A DNA stretch of 41,937 bases from a virus: UHGV virus genome UHGV-0025826; one strand, 5' to 3'. Shown one piece after another: positions 5,655 to 26,046 of the stretch. Position 1 is the first letter of the stretch; every line of letters starts with the position of its first letter. The notes under the pieces were generated by a model. The model had not been told where the DNA came from, did no database searches, and saw only the letters and a list, made by a program, of their open reading frames with translations. Position numbers and translations under genes: made by a program.

Positions 5655-6188
5655 ATGGGATTCAAATTCAGACAGCGCATCAAAATTGCACCAGGCATTC
5701 ATATAAACATAGGTAAAACAGGCATTACTAGCGCATCAATTGGTAAGGCTGGTGCTACCCTGAACGTTGGTAAAAAAGGGGTAAAGGCAACCGCAGGCAT
5801 TCCCGGTACCGGTTTGTCTTACACGAGTGGAAACTTGCTCGCGGGTCAAAAGAACTCCACCGGTAAACACGCTGAGAACGTAGAGGAACAAGCACCTGAG
5901 CGGCTTGGTTTCTTTTCGGACTCAACGTTGTTAGAGGATGGTCAGGAAGATATTCAACCACCTCGCCCATTGGTCATGGTATTAACCCATAAGCAATTTA
6001 GAAAACTATCAACCGAGGAGAAAACGGCATTTAAAAATGCAGGTGGTAAGGTGAAGTTTTCAATAGGCGAGAAAATTTTTATTCTCACAGTCATTATTTT
6101 TGCTCTTGGCTGGCTTTCAGATCGTCACCCACCAGAAAAAACCAATTCCAGCGTAACGCAAGAAGTAAAATCTTCAGTTAACAACTGA
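5655..6188 (+). CDS. DUF4236-like protein with a C-terminal transmembrane segment; opposite-strand moron in the baseplate operon
   Basis: 177 aa; N-terminus MGFKFRQRIKIAPGIHINIGKTGITSASIGKAGATLNVGKKGVKATAGIPGTGLSYT matches the remembered DUF4236 signature; hydrophobic IFILTVIIFALGWL near the C-terminus; AAGGAGAG RBS; looks AT-richer than its neighbours by eye. Confidence 0.6.
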   Translation: MGFKFRQRIKIAPGIHINIGKTGITSASIGKAGATLNVGKKGVKATAGIPGTGLSYTSGNLLAGQKNSTGKHAENVEEQAPERLGFFSDSTLLEDGQEDIQPPRPLVMVLTHKQFRKLSTEEKTAFKNAGGKVKFSIGEKIFILTVIIFALGWLSDRHPPEKTNSSVTQEVKSSVNN

Positions 6189-19138: not shown

Positions 19139-20556
19139 TACATGATGTCCAGTGGGCTGAGTGTTTTTCTCTGATACAAATCGCGTAGTCCCTGTGTCAT
19201 TGCATCGACAACGTCATCGTTCGCGCCGACAGGGAACGTGGTAATTTCCTCGACCGTCTCAGTGATCCACGGTGCGATGTCTTTATGGGGAAGGAAAACG
19301 TTACCTGCTTCCCATACAGCGGTGATCGCATGCGCCCGGGCGACTTTGCTGCCGTCCGGTTCAACGGGAACGAGTCCTGCTACGGTGCTTTTCAGTGAAT
19401 CAATAACCGCCGGGCCGTTGGCTTTATCCTCCACCAGCTTGCGCAGGCCTTTGGGGTATTCGTCGGCCATGCGTTTAACGGCTTTGAGTGTTGCGGTAAA
19501 GCTCATGCGCGCGCGCACCTGGTGAAGCAGATAAGCATTGGCGCCTTTTTTCCCCCATACCTGCCCGACAACGTAGTCGGTGCCCTCGCTGTCTTTGAAG
19601 GTCATATCCCAGCTATGGACGACAATATCGAAGTTGGTCGGCAAGTCTTTCGGGAGGTAATACTTGATCCACTCGTCTTTGAAGATTGAGCCGCCGGCCT
19701 GTTTTGGTGACTGCTGATACATCGCAGACCAGAAGTAATCCCCGAGAATGGTTTTGGTTTCGAGCAGCTTTTCTTTCGGGTGCAGTTCAGGCACCAGCGC
19801 TTCACCCTGCTCGTTGATTGCAGGGAACGCCAGCACCTTAGCGCGCGGCGTGATTTCCACCACACGCCCGGATAAATCATCTGTCGCCCAGCGGGTCGCC
19901 ATGATGATTTCGCCGCTGTTTTTCGACAGACGCGTTTTAAACGTGGAAACGTACCAGTTCCAGATAGATTTTTTGGTCGTCGGGCTGAGTGCTTCTTTGG
20001 CGTTTTTTATCGGGTCATCGATGATACCGAGATCGATTTTCTTACCTGTTAACGGGCCGCCTACGCCCGCACAGACATACGTTCCCTTATGGTTGGCTAT
20101 ACCGAATTCGTCAGTGTTACGCTTTACGGCCACACCATCAGCCGGCTTATTTCCCAACCAGGCACCCGGAAATATGTTGCGGTATTCCGGCGTGGACATA
20201 ATGCGCTGAACATCGGCGTTCATGTCCCCGGCAAGGTCAGCGGAGTACGACAAAGCGCCCACGCGCATTTCAGGATATTTTCCGAAGAAATACGCTGGCA
20301 GGTAACGCGAAACGATATCCGATTTACCATGCTGCGGCGGCGCACCGAGAATCAGTATCGGGCGCAGCCCGTTCATCATATCCAGCAGGAACTGATCCAG
20401 AGCGTCGCAGACCGTCTGAGAGAACTTGCTGGTGATGTATTCGGGATTAATGTACTGAATGAAGTCGTGGAGGCTTGCCCGCGCATTGCGTCGTTTGAGT
20501 AACTCGGCCGCTGCTTCCTGCTTACTTACCAGCGATAATTGCGGCGAGCTGCTCAT
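19138..20556 (-). CDS. Terminase large subunit
   Basis: 472 aa; Walker A-like GAPPQHGKS near the N-terminus; between terminase small subunit and portal. Confidence 0.8.
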   Translation of the reverse strand: MSSSPQLSLVSKQEAAAELLKRRNARASLHDFIQYINPEYITSKFSQTVCDALDQFLLDMMNGLRPILILGAPPQHGKSDIVSRYLPAYFFGKYPEMRVGALSYSADLAGDMNADVQRIMSTPEYRNIFPGAWLGNKPADGVAVKRNTDEFGIANHKGTYVCAGVGGPLTGKKIDLGIIDDPIKNAKEALSPTTKKSIWNWYVSTFKTRLSKNSGEIIMATRWATDDLSGRVVEITPRAKVLAFPAINEQGEALVPELHPKEKLLETKTILGDYFWSAMYQQSPKQAGGSIFKDEWIKYYLPKDLPTNFDIVVHSWDMTFKDSEGTDYVVGQVWGKKGANAYLLHQVRARMSFTATLKAVKRMADEYPKGLRKLVEDKANGPAVIDSLKSTVAGLVPVEPDGSKVARAHAITAVWEAGNVFLPHKDIAPWITETVEEITTFPVGANDDVVDAMTQGLRDLYQRKTLSPLDIM

Positions 20557-21520
20557 CAGTCAGATCCTCCGCGCTTACTGTGTGATTATGCTGTATGGGC
20601 TCACCATTCGGGCCGCTTAACTCAGTTTTGGTTTTCAGCATGCCGAGGTGTTGTGCGACCATCTTCATAGCCTCATCCTGATTGCGGGTGATCATTTCAA
20701 GGCCAAATTTGCCCTCTTTAATCCCGGCAAAAAGGCGGCGTTCTGCGCCCTTCAAATCTCGTGTATCGTGGAAAACAGGACGGCTCAGACCAACGCCATT
20801 GCAGCGGGGGCAATCCGGGTTCGGGTCCAGTGTGCCGTCGTAGCCGTAGCCGCCCGTATCCTTAGGCTGCATGGCACCTTCCTTCCCCTTAACCTTTTCT
20901 TCCGCTTCCTCAAACTCAACTGCATCGCGCCACTGGTAGTTAAAACCGAGTCCCCAGCAGTAACGGCAACAGCCGCGGTGATGTTCAGTAAGTTGCGTAG
21001 CGTCTGCCGTCGCAATGTCCCACCACCATTTCAACACTTCGTCCTGCGTTATCTTCACTCTTCGCGAGCGTTCGTCCAGCGCGTCGCGGATTGCCTGGCT
21101 GACCTTAGCATTTCTTAGCAGGCGCGAGGCGTTAACGTAAGCCGTATTTCCTTCACCTTTATAGCCAGCTCGCTTGTATGCAGCGGTCCTGTTCAGATCG
21201 AGAAGATACTCTTCGACAAACCTGATCTGCATATCGTTAAGGCCGTAATTGCGCAGGTTGAAGGGTTGCGCACTTTCCTGTATATCGGTCTGCGCATCAG
21301 TTGAGGATTGCTCATACTGCGCAGTGGTAGGGGCTTGTTCAGTCTGCGCATTGCGCACTTTCTTCTGCGCATTTTTTTGCGCAGTTGGCTTTTTGATATA
21401 GCGCCGCGCAGATGTGTAATTCAGCCCCCGCGCTTCACACCAGTCTTTGGGGGAAATACCGGATTTAGCATGCTCGGCGAGGAACTGGTGTTGCAGTGAT
21501 CCCCAGTCCGGTTTTGCCAT
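20522..21520 (-). CDS. Terminase small subunit
   Basis: 332 aa; basic N-terminal region; Cys cluster (CCRYCWG...CPRCNG); first gene of the packaging operon. Confidence 0.55.
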   Translation of the reverse strand: MAKPDWGSLQHQFLAEHAKSGISPKDWCEARGLNYTSARRYIKKPTAQKNAQKKVRNAQTEQAPTTAQYEQSSTDAQTDIQESAQPFNLRNYGLNDMQIRFVEEYLLDLNRTAAYKRAGYKGEGNTAYVNASRLLRNAKVSQAIRDALDERSRRVKITQDEVLKWWWDIATADATQLTEHHRGCCRYCWGLGFNYQWRDAVEFEEAEEKVKGKEGAMQPKDTGGYGYDGTLDPNPDCPRCNGVGLSRPVFHDTRDLKGAERRLFAGIKEGKFGLEMITRNQDEAMKMVAQHLGMLKTKTELSGPNGEPIQHNHTVSAEDLTDEQLAAIIAGK

Positions 21521-21607
21521 TTTAACCCTCAGTTTCTTGAAAACTATTTAATCAGATGTATCTTTGATAACGCAGTATCAACGCTCTATTAATTCAAGGA
21601 ATTTAGA

Positions 21608-22168
21608 ATGAAATACTCACAGCAAGAAAAACTACAGATCATGATGCTCAGTGATATTCACCGAGCATTAGAAATTGAAAACTCATTTGATCCTGACCTC
21701 ATTGACGAAGCAGTGAGCACGGATAACTACTGGGCTTTATCCTGGGAATACCCAGGCCTTCAAGATGAAGAAGAGGAGACCCCCTGGGAAGTCCAGCTTT
21801 TCGTTGATACCTATGATATGTATGACATTCTCCAATACACATACGAACGATTCAGTGCGGAAGACAAAGCAGAGGTTGCCAAATCTATTCGTAATTTCGA
21901 TGAGAAATTATCACTCACATTCCCCGGATTTGACGGTAACAACGAATCAAAGTTTCTTTTGATTGGTAGTTTATTGAAACGAATGGGACGGTTTAGCGGC
22001 AAAGACGATCTCACCCGGAACTCTCACATGCCCTCTGTTGCAATTTACCAACGTATGCTTGAAGTTTTCCTTCCTGCCAGAGCTAAGAATTGGGTTCACA
22101 ATGTGGGCATTACTAAACATGATTTTATCGATACACTCAACGCGAGAGTGCATCCAGAAAATCGTTAA
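21608..22168 (+). CDS. YfbU-family (UPF0304) protein; opposite-strand moron between lysis and packaging genes
   Basis: 186 aa; recalled E. coli YfbU shares DxYxMY..L, FLGFD-like and a C-terminal YQRML.V segment (here VDTYDMYDIL, TFPGFDG, YQRMLEVF). Confidence 0.5.
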   Translation: MKYSQQEKLQIMMLSDIHRALEIENSFDPDLIDEAVSTDNYWALSWEYPGLQDEEEETPWEVQLFVDTYDMYDILQYTYERFSAEDKAEVAKSIRNFDEKLSLTFPGFDGNNESKFLLIGSLLKRMGRFSGKDDLTRNSHMPSVAIYQRMLEVFLPARAKNWVHNVGITKHDFIDTLNARVHPENR

Positions 22169-22173
22169 ACGTT

Positions 22174-22195
22174 AATGCCCGCAAATGCGGGCATT
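22174..22195. terminator. Bidirectional terminator hairpin between convergent YfbU-like and Rz genes
   Basis: Palindrome aatgcccgcaaatgcgggcatt with AT-rich flanks on both sides. Confidence 0.5.
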
Positions 22196-22721
22196 ATTCA
22201 TCATGGCGCCTTATTACTTTGTCGTAGGTGCGCTCACAGGTATTTCCGGCGACATAACGCTCATCAGCCTCTTTTGCGAATTTTCCCGCCAGATCGTCAG
22301 CTTCGCTGAGCAACTGGGCGAGCAATATTCCGGCCTCGGCTTTTGCCTGGCTTGTTGCTGCAATTGCGGAAATTCTGCCTGTTTCACTTGTTGCGAGCTG
22401 CCGTTGTATTTCGGCGAGCTGCTGTTGCAACCCACTGCGAGCACGCTTAGCAGCGTTAGCATCAGCCTGTACTTTTGCCAGTTCTTCATCGGCTTTCTCT
22501 CGTTCTTCATCTACGGCCCGCTGGCGGCGCTGCTCTTCTGCTCTTTCGGTTACTTCACGCTGCAATGTAGTGGTCGCATCAGTAAGGTCACGTTGTGCCC
22601 ACTGCAATTTCCAGGATGAGTCCGCCTCCTGATACCCGCGTGAATAACACCAGTACGCGACCGCGCATAACAAAAAAGCCACCAGCAGTATTTCTGCCAG
22701 CGGCTTCCAGTAAGCCCTCAC
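22194..22721 (-). CDS. i-spanin (Rz-like)
   Basis: Start set to GTG at 22721 overlapping the endolysin stop (GTGA); N-terminal TM (LAEILLVAFLLCAVAYW) then long coiled coil. Confidence 0.6.
   Translation of the reverse strand: MRAYWKPLAEILLVAFLLCAVAYWCYSRGYQEADSSWKLQWAQRDLTDATTTLQREVTERAEEQRRQRAVDEEREKADEELAKVQADANAAKRARSGLQQQLAEIQRQLATSETGRISAIAATSQAKAEAGILLAQLLSEADDLAGKFAKEADERYVAGNTCERTYDKVIRRHDE
22214..22489 (-). CDS. o-spanin (Rz1-like lipoprotein) embedded in the +1 frame of Rz
   Basis: MKNWQKYRLMLTLLSVLAVGC: basic n-region, hydrophobic core and lipobox-like AVGC; fully nested in the Rz gene; exact start uncertain. Confidence 0.45.
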   Translation of the reverse strand: MKNWQKYRLMLTLLSVLAVGCNSSSPKYNGSSQQVKQAEFPQLQQQARQKPRPEYCSPSCSAKLTIWRENSQKRLMSVMSPEIPVSAPTTK

Positions 22722-23257
22722 TGGTCTATCCCCCAGCACGTTAACGCGCTTTCCTGGTCTCGTCGCTCTACCTGACCATAGCACCCATTTTTCTGGCCTT
22801 TGGTCAGACGACAGTCGCGGCCACCATCTTTAATCCACCAGCGAATAGCTTCACATGCGCCTTTACGGTCGCCAGCATTAATTCGCTTATAGAACGTAGA
22901 CGGGAAACATTTCCCGGGGCCGATGTTATAGGGGCAGAAAGATGCGATCCCGGCTTTCTGTGGTTCGGTCAGTGGTACTTTGATATTTCGGTCAACCCAC
23001 GCCAGCGCCTTGTCGCGTTCAATGGCATTCACCTGGGCACATTTCTCAGCTGACAACTTCATACCCTGAACTACCGGCTTGCCGTCAACCGTGGTAGCTC
23101 CCCGGCAAATCGTCCAGATACCGCTGCCATCTTTGTACGCTGTAAGGCTGTTTCCCTCTTTCTCATTCAGAAACTGATCGAGAATGACGGATGCTGGCGC
23201 ACCAGCAAGTACCAACCCCAGAACAGCAGCACTTAATTTTGCTCTGGATCCCATCAC
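22718..23257 (-). CDS. SAR endolysin (GH24 lysozyme, phage 21 R-like)
   Basis: 179 aa; Gly/Ala-rich N-terminal signal-anchor LSAAVLGLVLAGAPASVIL; catalytic E-x8-D-x5-T (EGNSLTAYKDGSGIWT). Confidence 0.85.
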   Translation of the reverse strand: MMGSRAKLSAAVLGLVLAGAPASVILDQFLNEKEGNSLTAYKDGSGIWTICRGATTVDGKPVVQGMKLSAEKCAQVNAIERDKALAWVDRNIKVPLTEPQKAGIASFCPYNIGPGKCFPSTFYKRINAGDRKGACEAIRWWIKDGGRDCRLTKGQKNGCYGQVERRDQESALTCWGIDQ

Positions 23258-23556
23258 TCACCTTCCTTTTGTAATGCCTCAACGACCACGCTTGCAGCCG
23301 CAGGACGTTCGTGAAGGGGTTTATCACCAACGCCTTTCAGGTAGTCATTAACCATTTTTGTTCGCTTCTCGTCCTCTCTACGCCTGCGGTGGGCATCCAC
23401 GCGACCATTGACATAGGAGGCAAACGAGATAAGCAGACCAGCGGCGCCAAAGAACATGAACACCATATCCTGAGTGGTAAAACCAATGGCTGACGCCAGA
23501 GCTGCTACCCACGCGAAGAACTGCGTGAAAATGTTCCCTGAATCATTCATTTTCAT
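23254..23556 (-). CDS. Holin (class II, pinholin-type) with dual-start MKM motif
   Basis: 100 aa; two hydrophobic segments and charged C-terminus; begins MKM as in lambda S; stop overlaps endolysin start. Confidence 0.7.
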   Translation of the reverse strand: MKMNDSGNIFTQFFAWVAALASAIGFTTQDMVFMFFGAAGLLISFASYVNGRVDAHRRRREDEKRTKMVNDYLKGVGDKPLHERPAAASVVVEALQKEGE

Positions 23557-23593
23557 GGTCTCTCACCTCGCTGTGTGCGGGTGTTATTGAGGT

Positions 23594-23618
23594 AATAAAA
23601 AAGGCCGCTTGAGCGACC
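23594..23618 (-). terminator. Rho-independent terminator between methyltransferase and holin genes
   Basis: Minus-strand RNA GGUCGCUCAAGCGGCC followed by UUUUUUAUU. Confidence 0.45.
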
Positions 23619-23624
23619 TCACGT

Positions 23625-24677
23625 TTATTCCCCTGTTAACGCCCTTATTTCCTCCACCGTCTGGCTAAACCTGTCCTCCTCGAGTTCAACGCCGATAGCC
23701 TGGCGGCCAAGTTCCAGCGCGATTTTCACGGTCGAACCGGACCCCATAAAGAAATCAGCCACCACATCACCAGGCTTACTGCTGGCGTTGATGATCTGCC
23801 GCAACATGTCAGCGGGTTTTTCGCATGGGTGTTTACCTGGGTAAAACTGAACGGGTTTATGTGTCCAGACGTCGGTATAAGGAACGGATACGGAAACAGA
23901 GAAATGCCGCCGAAGCGATTTGTACTCTTCGAGCAGCTCTGAATACTTGCGATTTAACGAATGCCACATAGCCACCAGCTGGTGGTGTGGTGTTGCCAGT
24001 TCGCCGTTCTGGTGCTTTTCGATGGCTACCTGCGTGAAAAGGGACTGAAGATTCCGGTAGTCTAATTCATTCGGTAATTGCCACTGGCTACCGCTGAACC
24101 AGTGAGACACCATGTTCTTCTTTCCAGTCGCATCGGCTATTTGTTTTGAGGTTATGCCAAGCGCTTCACGTGCATCCCGGAAATAAGAAATTAGGGGAGT
24201 CATTACATGCTGCTTCAGCTCGCTTCCCTTCTCCGCGTAACCGTCGCTCTTTGGTTTATACGGCCCCTGGTAATGCTCAGCGAAGAGGATGCGCTCTGTT
24301 GCAGGGAAGTAAGAGCGCAGACTCTCTTTATTACAGCCATTCCAGCGGCCCGACGGTTTAGCCCAGATGATGTGGTTCAGGACGTTGAACCGCTCACGCA
24401 TCATGATCTCAATGTCTGCCGCCAGGCGGTGACCGGAGAAAAGATAAAGACTGCCAGCAGGTTTAAGCACTCGCCAGAATTGTGCGAGGCACATATCAAG
24501 CCAGCGAAGATAATCCTCATCCCCTTTCCACTGATTGTCCCAGCCGTTGGGTTTCACTTTGAAGTACGGCGGATCCGTGACTATCAGGTCAATGGAGTTA
24601 TCAGGGAGAGTGGCGATGTATTGCAGGCTATCAGCGTTGACTAACTCAACACTGTTTATATTTACAGTATTTTTCAT
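23625..24677 (-). CDS. DNA methyltransferase, beta-class (N6-adenine or N4-cytosine), no adjacent endonuclease recognised
   Basis: 350 aa; DPPY motif near the N-terminus (LIVTDPPYF) and FxGxG near the C-terminus (DFFMGSGST). Confidence 0.85.
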   Translation of the reverse strand: MKNTVNINSVELVNADSLQYIATLPDNSIDLIVTDPPYFKVKPNGWDNQWKGDEDYLRWLDMCLAQFWRVLKPAGSLYLFSGHRLAADIEIMMRERFNVLNHIIWAKPSGRWNGCNKESLRSYFPATERILFAEHYQGPYKPKSDGYAEKGSELKQHVMTPLISYFRDAREALGITSKQIADATGKKNMVSHWFSGSQWQLPNELDYRNLQSLFTQVAIEKHQNGELATPHHQLVAMWHSLNRKYSELLEEYKSLRRHFSVSVSVPYTDVWTHKPVQFYPGKHPCEKPADMLRQIINASSKPGDVVADFFMGSGSTVKIALELGRQAIGVELEEDRFSQTVEEIRALTGE

Positions 24678-24886: not shown

Positions 24887-25291
24887 TCAAGCAGCAGGTT
24901 CGGATGGATAAACCTGCTCATACATCTGCTGAAGGGTGTCAATAGCTTTGTTAGCCATTATCAATATAGCTTCCGCATCAGCCTTACTTAAAGTTCTATC
25001 AAGCTCGTAATCTGCCCATTTACGTCGGGTATGCAAATGTCTCAGCATTGTTCCCATAGAAATGAGTTTCATTTTTTCAAACGGCTCATTTCCTTTTAAC
25101 CATGCATCATTTGTAAGATAGTCGCGAACAGCTTGGTGTGACGACTTGTTTGGGCATTTCTCAAGCTTATCAAGCGTTTCATGATAAACTCCATAATACG
25201 CTCGACCAATGGCGTTTCTGTAACCGATTTCATCGTTGTGAGAAATGCATTTACCAGCAAAAACAATAAAATCTTTCCCCGATACGCTCAT
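24887..25291 (-). CDS. Hypothetical protein, cassette A gene 2 (134 aa); possible HEPN-like R-x6-H motif
   Basis: Start overlaps the upstream stop (ATGA at 25289-25293); contains RAYYGVYH; looks AT-rich by eye; no family recognised. Confidence 0.5.
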   Translation of the reverse strand: MSVSGKDFIVFAGKCISHNDEIGYRNAIGRAYYGVYHETLDKLEKCPNKSSHQAVRDYLTNDAWLKGNEPFEKMKLISMGTMLRHLHTRRKWADYELDRTLSKADAEAILIMANKAIDTLQQMYEQVYPSEPAA

Positions 25292-26046
25292 CAGTAAATC
25301 CCTCTTTTTTCATCGCTTTGGAACCAGGATGTAAAAGGGCTGTTCCGATAACTATCATCTGAGAGCAAAACCAACAGTTCCATGTTCATTTCAGCTAAAA
25401 CCTGCGGATCAGCAGTTTGGGCTCTAACGATGAATGCATTGTCATCATCTCCACCAAGATAATAGCTAACACTTGAACAGTTAATACCGCGCTTGTTCGC
25501 AATCTCTTCAGCTTGATCGCAAAGGGCTTCTAGTTCTCGAGAAGAAAGACGGGTAGCGTTTTTGAAATCAACAATCTGTTCAGCCATATAATTTCCCTGA
25601 TTGATTATATCCTCTCGCTCTTGGCCATCATAAAGAGCAGCCATTTTGAGGGAGAACTTTTTAACCAACTTGTCGTTGCCGATACAAAATGCAGCGTTTC
25701 TTGCTACAAGCCTCAGTTCATGTGAAGGGAAAAGCTCAACTATTCTAAACAACTCAACGCGATGCTCATAGTTATGAGCCGAACGAGAAAGATACGCCAA
25801 GTAGTTTTGTGCGATCGTTGGACTCCCAGAGCTCATCGCGTCTTTGAATAAACGTACTGCATCAGAGTGACGCCCGAGAGTTCCATTAAGCCATGCATAC
25901 GCATGTGCGCGCTCACTTATTGGAAGTTTAGCAATGTCGTGCTCAATTTCCGCAATAGTGTCTGTATCCGGGACTTCTCCCTTCTGGAAGTAATCGAGGA
26001 TTGTTGCAAGCAGTTCTTGTTCTTTTGACTCAGGCTGTCCTGACAT
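25291..26046 (-). CDS. Hypothetical protein, cassette A gene 1 (251 aa); predicted helical, TPR-like repeats
   Basis: Segments such as AHAYAWLNGTLGRHSDAVRLFKDA and IAQNYLAYLSRSAHNYEH look like TPR-type helical hairpins; no catalytic motif recognised. Confidence 0.5.
   Translation of the reverse strand: MSGQPESKEQELLATILDYFQKGEVPDTDTIAEIEHDIAKLPISERAHAYAWLNGTLGRHSDAVRLFKDAMSSGSPTIAQNYLAYLSRSAHNYEHRVELFRIVELFPSHELRLVARNAAFCIGNDKLVKKFSLKMAALYDGQEREDIINQGNYMAEQIVDFKNATRLSSRELEALCDQAEEIANKRGINCSSVSYYLGGDDDNAFIVRAQTADPQVLAEMNMELLVLLSDDSYRNSPFTSWFQSDEKRGIY

Follow-up and report, generated by a model that had tools for sequence, protein, structure and literature searches.

Two phenotypes are known for the YfbU family (Pfam PF03887), namely death linked to MazF in response to DNA damage and resistance to phages, the latter in a relative from a Lactococcus plasmid. 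E. coli YfbU was described as a "death protein", whose synthesis goes up after MazF induction and whose loss prevents the MazF-dependent death that follows DNA damage (PMC2646832). Deletion of yfbU was also found to restore the SOS response in strain MC4100relA+ (PMC4161249). A crystal structure of YfbU has been available since 2004 and the gene occurs in every E. coli, and the biochemical activity of the protein is still unassigned. The Lactococcus relative, Kamadhenu, is a 180-amino-acid, single-gene PF03887 protein encoded by the plasmid gene pUCCL624_130 (Grafakou et al., NAR 2024, PMC11381338). It confers a post-injection resistance resembling that of abortive infection (Abi) systems, with at least 4-log protection and a culture collapse that depends on the multiplicity of infection (PMC11381338), and its escape mutants all alter G22 of a Sak-like single-strand annealing protein (SSAP; PNAS 2025, PMC12184496). 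Kamadhenu is the one experimental precedent for single-gene defense by a YfbU domain, and phage-borne YfbU proteins were not discussed in the literature searched. Here, we analyzed a YfbU-family gene (21608..22168, plus strand) in the virus genome UHGV-0025826, a stretch of 41,937 nucleotides which is referred to below, at its full length, as the window. On balance we favor the view, drawn by analogy, that this gene is expressed in the lysogen and acts as a Kamadhenu-like, single-gene abortive-infection defense against superinfecting phages.

The window protein is a remote member of the YfbU family

The window represents a complete lambdoid/Rac-like E. coli prophage with genes for integrase, RecE/RecT, replication proteins O/P, Q, lysis proteins, terminase and a contractile tail, and prophages located beside kch in E. 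coli VE-F5 and NADC1036 were 100% identical to it across the tested region. The gene in question starts with ATG and encodes a protein of 186 amino acids. It is a real gene and is under purifying selection, as comparison with homologs of 94–96% and 76–77% protein identity gave ratios of nonsynonymous to synonymous substitution rates (dN/dS) of 0.09–0.13, with dS up to ~1.8. The product has the YfbU fold and is soluble, with two domains made up entirely of helices; AlphaFold predicted a confident model, and the two-domain all-alpha fold of the YfbU structures 1WPB and 4LR3 was found in it.

The original prediction had pointed out, from the letters and their translation, a resemblance to chromosomal YfbU. 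At the level of the family this was confirmed by formal alignment. The PF03887 profile, which is the sole domain of the protein, matched residues 1–158 on profile positions 1–150 of 166 (46.5 bits against a gathering threshold of 25, E = 5.5e-12), and an hhalign comparison of a 26-homolog profile with E. coli K-12 YfbU gave a probability of 98.9% (E = 1.7e-17, 159 columns, end to end). As significant similarity was found, the resemblance stands, although it is a remote one. What did not hold was a close tie to the chromosomal protein: single-sequence similarity was weak, and the model for the chromosomal YfbU equivalog (NF003936 / PRK05445) scored 35 bits, under its cut-off of 90, and covered only residues 61–155. 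A two-sequence BLASTP alignment with E. coli YfbU spanned 103 residues at 27% identity (E = 1e-6), and a phmmer search of PDB with the single sequence recovered YfbU at E = 0.49–0.55. This weak score indicates that pairwise search understates the homology and that profile and fold comparisons are needed. The top match of the PDB search was a designed repeat protein, which was judged spurious.

Among the 26 homologs, which extend down to 29% identity, residues F105, G107, G110, E113, N138, H140, Y147 and M150 were invariant, and these positions align with the segments FLGFDAATE, NAQ and YQRML of E. coli YfbU. Thus, E. coli YfbU (b2294; PDB 1WPB, 4LR3) has the Pfam family, the fold and the core G-F-D-x3-E ... 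N ... Y-x2-M in common with the window protein, at an identity of 19–27%. The window branch carries FPGFDGNNE, NSH and a C-terminal HPxNR tail, whereas E. coli YfbU has FLGFDAATE and NAQ and lacks the tail. The two genes also differ in their location. The yfbU gene belongs to the core genome and has a constant location, hxpA-yfbU-yfbV, in all 5426 of 5426 complete E. coli genomes, whereas the window gene is prophage cargo between the genes for the small terminase subunit (TerS) and the spanin and was found, at the DNA level, in 2 of these 5426 genomes. It is therefore a PF03887 member that is not a copy of host yfbU, and its product is a true but remote member of the YfbU family rather than an ortholog of chromosomal yfbU.

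Annotation of the gene at the family level exists already. PGAP named the identical open reading frame (ORF) in VE-F5 and NADC1036 "YfbU family protein" (WP_001767237.1), and an end-to-end match (E = 6.9e-75, residues 1–182 of 182) to PHROG 6084, a group without functional annotation, shows that this phage protein family had been catalogued. BFVD contributed a single viral structural match, which is unnamed. The family as a whole is large, as a profile search detected 3040 clusters (at 50% identity) with E ≤ 1e-3, of which 339 had E ≤ 1e-30.

The gene is a moron within the late operon

As had been predicted, the plus-strand gene, with limits of exactly 21608..22168, lies between minus-strand terminase and lysis genes. 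Its left, divergent neighbor is the TerS gene (20522..21520, minus strand; PF03592, 98.4 bits, PGAP), and its right, convergent neighbor encodes a DUF2514 / Rz-like i-spanin (22194..22721, minus strand; PF10721, 100.6 bits, PGAP), within which a second ORF of 98 codons with the lipobox LLSVLAVGC is embedded out of frame (22214..22510, minus strand). Judging from its sequence, the embedded ORF is probably an Rz1-like o-spanin gene that PGAP did not annotate. With both neighbors on the opposite strand, the YfbU-like gene has no co-oriented partner.

The limits of the insertion became clear from a related E. coli prophage, designated L002, whose flanks are 87% and 94% identical to those of the window and in which homology is broken from 21520, the TerS start codon, to 22214, the stop of the embedded lipobox ORF. 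These breaks define a cargo cassette of 693 bp (21521..22213, plus strand), which spans an upstream region, the YfbU-like gene and a hairpin and reaches 20 nt into the 3' end of the i-spanin gene. The corresponding slot of L002 is occupied by an unrelated minus-strand ORF of 136 amino acids with no Pfam or PADLOC match, and most relatives of the lysis and terminase genes occur without a YfbU-like gene. The GC content falls to 42.1% within the gene and to 29.9% in its upstream region, from 52.6–53.3% in the TerS, spanin and lysozyme genes. Morons have been defined as independently expressed cargo in a phage operon (PMC2629481), and two of their marks, replacement or absence of the cargo in related phages and a deviating base composition, were seen here. 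The gene is a moron, that is, a horizontally acquired, apparently self-contained transcription unit placed antisense in the late operon between the spanin genes and the TerS gene. We consider this reading, together with the YfbU-family identity of the product, nearly certain. The moron position, which the original prediction had proposed, is borne out by the low GC content, by the replacement of the cargo in L002 and by recurrence in the same slot beside unrelated packaging modules (see below).

This compositionally foreign, self-contained and selected cassette occupies a classic lysogenic-conversion slot. The bor gene of phage lambda has the same slot and orientation (antisense to the late operon, directly after Rz/Rz1 and convergent with it, and upstream of the packaging genes), and both genes are accessory cargo, presumably expressed independently, that varies among related phages. 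The likeness is positional only; lambda Bor is an outer-membrane lipoprotein involved in serum resistance and is unrelated to the window protein in sequence and fold.

The gene has its own upstream region, as predicted (21521..21607, plus strand; 87 bp). A consensus scan of this AT-rich region revealed a promoter-like site with 9/12 matches on the plus strand, composed of TTGAAA (21537–21542), a 16-nt spacer and TATCTT (21559–21564), and a Shine-Dalgarno sequence AAGGAA (21596–21601, plus strand) precedes the ATG by 6 nt. Homologs of 76–77% protein identity have the same two hexamers with a different spacer, and a second clade possesses its own conserved TTTACT-17-AATTAT and TAAGGAG upstream of the gene.

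The 25-nt gap between the convergent stop codons is filled by a perfect, GC-rich 10-bp stem with a 4-nt loop (22173..22196), a putative terminator which overlaps the TAA of the i-spanin gene. Its folding energy is −17.4 kcal/mol (z = −5.05), and 0 of 200 shuffled sequences folded equally well. GC-rich hairpins located 6–20 nt past the stop recur across diverse homologs with differing stem sequences, and in several of these the hairpin is followed by a T-rich tail. The bidirectional terminator that had been predicted at this place was only partly borne out: a perfect hairpin does lie between the stops, but it is followed by no canonical U-tract on either strand and was not called by the terminator scan. 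The "terminators" that the scan did call were disregarded because they lie inside coding sequence (the TGCGCA repeats of TerS, and within the YfbU-like ORF). Late transcripts must read through the hairpin to reach the terminase genes. No Rfam family was detected in positions 20500–23800, which excludes a known small RNA or riboswitch there.

Two observations concern the left edge of this slot and prophage L002. The first ~20 nt of the TerS gene (encoding MAKPDW; 21500–21520 in the window, with counterparts in loci L017–L034) are conserved across otherwise different TerS genes, and in ~40 E. coli genomes the match is confined to this N-terminal part of TerS. The stretch resembles a recombination joint that marks the left border of the slot. 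In L002 (L002:2450–3877), two PGAP names are probably misleading products of automatic annotation: "anti-CBASS protein Acb1 family protein" for a gene in the portal position beside the terminase, and "MalT transcriptional regulator family protein" for what is presumed to be the large terminase.

Position of the gene in related phages

Five homologs could be located by exact protein sequence, and all of them were in prophages. Four of the five occupy the lysis-terminase slot in antisense orientation, next to terminases of different types (Nu1/GpA, DUF1441/GpA, Terminase_2/Terminase_6C and an unclassified type), and the fifth abuts an integrase. Integrase genes are also the neighbors of a clade of 36–41% identity. 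In IMG/VR, relatives were encoded on 95 contigs, and 62 loci were kept at an identity of at least 46%. An opposite-strand lysis gene was present within 3 kb downstream in 52 of the 62 loci, an opposite-strand terminase upstream in 37 (with five TerS reference types), and both flanks in 32; these counts are lower bounds because the reference set was small. Many of the IMG/VR contigs represent prophages predicted in isolate genomes and do not count as independent of each other, and gene calls for the context analysis were made with simple ORF heuristics. An induced E. coli phage, vB_EcoS-689R5, has a YfbU-family gene of 28% identity in the matching slot.

A homolog of 39% identity was also observed in the Yersinia phage vB_YenM_324 (Peduoviridae, P2-like; L177:3974–4552), in a run of non-structural genes past the tail-fiber assembly gene. 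We assume that this site may be a known P2 cargo hotspot.

Plasmid and chromosomal relatives

YfbU-family genes are common on plasmids as well. In a tblastn search of PLSDB, the Enterococcus query matched 344 plasmid records, 270 of which were Enterococcus plasmids; other carriers included small Acinetobacter plasmids, Xanthomonas, Raoultella and others. With three YfbU-family queries, no Lactococcus record was among the matches listed, and a protein search seeded with the Enterococcus plasmid YfbU had only enterococcal and metagenomic relatives among the matches listed. The Enterococcus plasmid YfbU proteins are nearer to E. coli YfbU than to the window protein.

Among GTDB species representatives, we collected 71 loci with relatives of 32–40% identity, mostly in Proteobacteria. 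In 24–25 of the 71, a conserved co-oriented gene for a protein of ~170 amino acids is located immediately upstream (e.g., L099:5487–5987, L101:5487–5987, L114 and L136). This protein begins with a transmembrane helix, to which a helical domain is joined, and belongs to no Pfam or PADLOC family. Copies from Alteromonas and Marinomonas share up to 98% identity, which indicates that the two genes form a module that was mobile recently. No homolog of the transmembrane partner was found in the window or in any viral locus.

Several of the distant homologs have defense genes as neighbors, including ApeA (3 loci), TIR/bSEFIR proteins (2) and AbiJ-like proteins (2), along with type I and type IIG restriction-modification genes, AbiEii, integrases and phage genes. 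In between lie housekeeping genes of unrelated kinds, and this mixture is the pattern of variable islands. The window protein belongs to a branch of the YfbU fold whose members occur on mobile elements and within defense islands.

A further recurrent form, of 230–240 amino acids, has an N-terminal domain (KTERFEMRLD...PSRSEAVRRLIE) resembling ribbon-helix-helix (RHH) domains, fused to the YfbU domain; its Pfam RHH_1 score is just under threshold. Such fusions include P0043, P0086, P0097, P0121, P0185, P0254 and others, as well as those at L180:5001–5720 and L182:2361–3080, and they adjoin an integrase gene or a reverse transcriptase gene with a MazG-like gene. Mis-called starts were considered as an explanation for relatives of 224–240 amino acids and were rejected for most of the 230–240-amino-acid forms on account of the conserved N-terminal domain. 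P0002, in which no N-terminal domain was found, may be such a mis-called start. The prophage clade has neither the transmembrane partner nor the RHH domain.

Possible function of the window gene

The gene resembles that of Kamadhenu in being a solo gene for a YfbU protein of ~180 amino acids. Kamadhenu comes from a Gram-positive host and a plasmid, whereas the window gene belongs to an E. coli prophage. The original prediction had suggested a role in host manipulation or exclusion. The exclusion part of this suggestion is made plausible, by analogy, by the Abi-like phenotype of Kamadhenu (PMC11381338) and by the occurrence of distant homologs beside ApeA, TIR, AbiJ-like and restriction-modification genes; it stands in this limited form. 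If the analogy applies, the gene would be transcribed from its own promoter in the lysogen, and the product would be a single-gene, post-injection defense of the abortive-infection type against superinfecting phages. By analogy with Kamadhenu, whose escape mutations all fall in the Sak-like SSAP, its activity might hinge on recombination or replication functions of the invader, and the infected cell would then arrest growth or die. Upon induction of the prophage, Q-antiterminated late transcription running antisense through the gene would silence or dampen it, which could spare the phage's own RecET-dependent lytic growth.

A number of observations weigh against this proposal. The Abi-like phenotype and the SSAP escape mutants were demonstrated for Kamadhenu and not for the window clade, and the two are linked by description only, through their Pfam family, their size and their occurrence as single genes on mobile elements. 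By phmmer, the window protein scores only 13–15 bits against E. coli YfbU and fails to detect the Enterococcus plasmid YfbU proteins, the nearest Lactobacillales stand-in, which indicates how deep the family is. Moreover, in the trigger assay no SSAP or single-stranded DNA-binding protein (SSB), including Kamadhenu's Sak, activated any system (PMC12184496), which means that Sak by itself does not trigger Kamadhenu. Nor can a catalytic domain or an effector be recognized. The association with defense islands concerns relatives of 32–40% identity and not the prophage clade, and because it was recorded with no background control, enrichment of defense genes is not claimed. PADLOC also had no match for the window protein or the plasmid copies, although its library, from 2023, predates Kamadhenu and the absence of a match is uninformative. 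With regard to expression, ~1.8 promoter-like sites are expected by chance in the scanned 1.2-kb stretch, so that the match alone is not above chance, and the missing U-tract of the hairpin, noted above, counts on the same side.

It is conceivable, though we think it unlikely, that the gene is instead a lysogenic-conversion factor which tunes the host DNA-damage/SOS/death pathway, and thereby induction or lysogen survival, by mimicking, supplementing or antagonizing YfbU. Because yfbU is present in 5426 of 5426 E. coli genomes, a lysogen has two paralogs; MazF-dependent death of cells with damaged DNA requires the chromosomal one (PMC2646832), the deletion of which restores the SOS response in MC4100relA+ (PMC4161249). 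The independently expressed moron layout is also compatible with such a role, and in crystals YfbU forms a large oligomer, each entry containing 16 chains (PMC11381338). However, co-assembly is unlikely at ~19–27% identity to host YfbU. In addition, the branch is also found beside defense genes in many taxa without the E. coli-type yfbU context, and the sole tested mobile-element copy is an anti-phage protein (PMC11381338).

The orientation of the gene bears on another, rather improbable, explanation, namely that it serves the phage in the lytic cycle, either as an anti-defense function blocking host abortive infection or MazEF/YfbU death, or as an accessory of RecET recombination/replication. 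The gene runs antisense to the late operon and is equipped with a promoter-like site and a hairpin of its own, a layout that suits expression in the lysogen and not late in the lytic cycle. Its absence from most related phages implies that it is dispensable, and relatives are present on plasmids and chromosomal islands without phage. Still, some relatives are carried by phages that were induced or isolated, anti-defense genes are known from some prophage cargo slots (e.g., the L002 gene that PGAP placed in the Acb1 family), and Kamadhenu is genetically tied to phage SSAPs, while the prophage analyzed here encodes both RecE and RecT.

The architectures seen in the wider family raise the question of whether these genes are selfish addiction elements, similar to toxin-antitoxin systems, which stabilize their carrier and give no protection against phages. 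The RHH-fused relatives resemble type II antitoxins or autoregulators, other relatives form a tight two-gene operon with the small transmembrane protein, and an Enterococcus plasmid copy is located near a zeta-toxin/antitoxin pair. The prophage clade, however, is solo, with no partner, RHH domain or recognizable toxin, which makes this reading improbable to a still greater degree for the window gene; toxin-antitoxin-like architecture and defense are also not mutually exclusive. Finally, that the ORF is a decaying passenger without current function, as its rarity (2/5426 complete E. coli genomes at the DNA level) might suggest, is strongly disfavored and very improbable given dN/dS of ~0.1 over dS up to ~1.8, a full-length intact ORF in at least 62 viral contigs with no frequent frameshifts or truncations seen among the viral loci, motifs invariant across 26 sequences down to 29% identity and the confident predicted structure.

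If the defense reading is correct, the lambdoid lysis-terminase slot gains another kind of defense cargo, and defense-finding tools could model a branch that is absent from PADLOC v2. The prophage clade, which occurs in E. coli and Salmonella as a compact 693-bp cassette, offers a tractable route to the function of the fold, because standard methods in these hosts include phage panels, the selection of escape mutants and recombineering. The ~3000 clusters, the transmembrane partner, the RHH fusions and the defense-gene neighbors provide leads to the trigger and the effector. A more speculative idea, which we put forward tentatively and consider doubtful, is that the YfbU fold represents a widespread and hitherto unrecognized class of sensor-effectors that couple phage SSAP/single-stranded DNA recombination-replication intermediates to cell arrest or death. 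Such proteins would occur as solo, transmembrane-paired and RHH-fused forms; the solo form, placed in the bor slot by enterobacterial prophages, would exclude competitors and be shut off by antisense late transcription when the prophage itself is induced, and core yfbU would be a domesticated relative, which would explain its DNA-damage-specific death phenotype.

Other features of the prophage

Beyond the spanin genes, the lysis region comprises an endolysin (lysozyme) gene (22718..23257, minus strand; PF00959, 85.9 bits) and a holin-like ORF (23254..23556, minus strand), which is without a Pfam match; in related phages, a holin and an endolysin are annotated at this place. Two minus-strand segments, 24887–26046 and 23625–24677, look like further accessory cargo: adjacent ORFs of 134 and 251 amino acids with no Pfam or PADLOC match lie in a low-GC patch between Q and an orphan N6/N4 DNA methyltransferase gene, which contains a helix-turn-helix insertion and is situated immediately upstream of the lysis genes.

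In the TerS gene, 8 of the window's 21 TGCGCA palindromes lie within 134 bp (21250–21383) of the 5' third, where they encode an Ala-Gln-rich linker. Their count in the whole window is not above chance, and only the clustering stands out; the cluster may represent pac or TerS recognition repeats.

Apart from the YfbU-like gene, the only plus-strand gene inside the minus-strand late operon is a DUF4236 gene (5655–6188, plus strand; PF14020, 69 bits), located amid baseplate and tail genes. It is a candidate for a second moron of this prophage.

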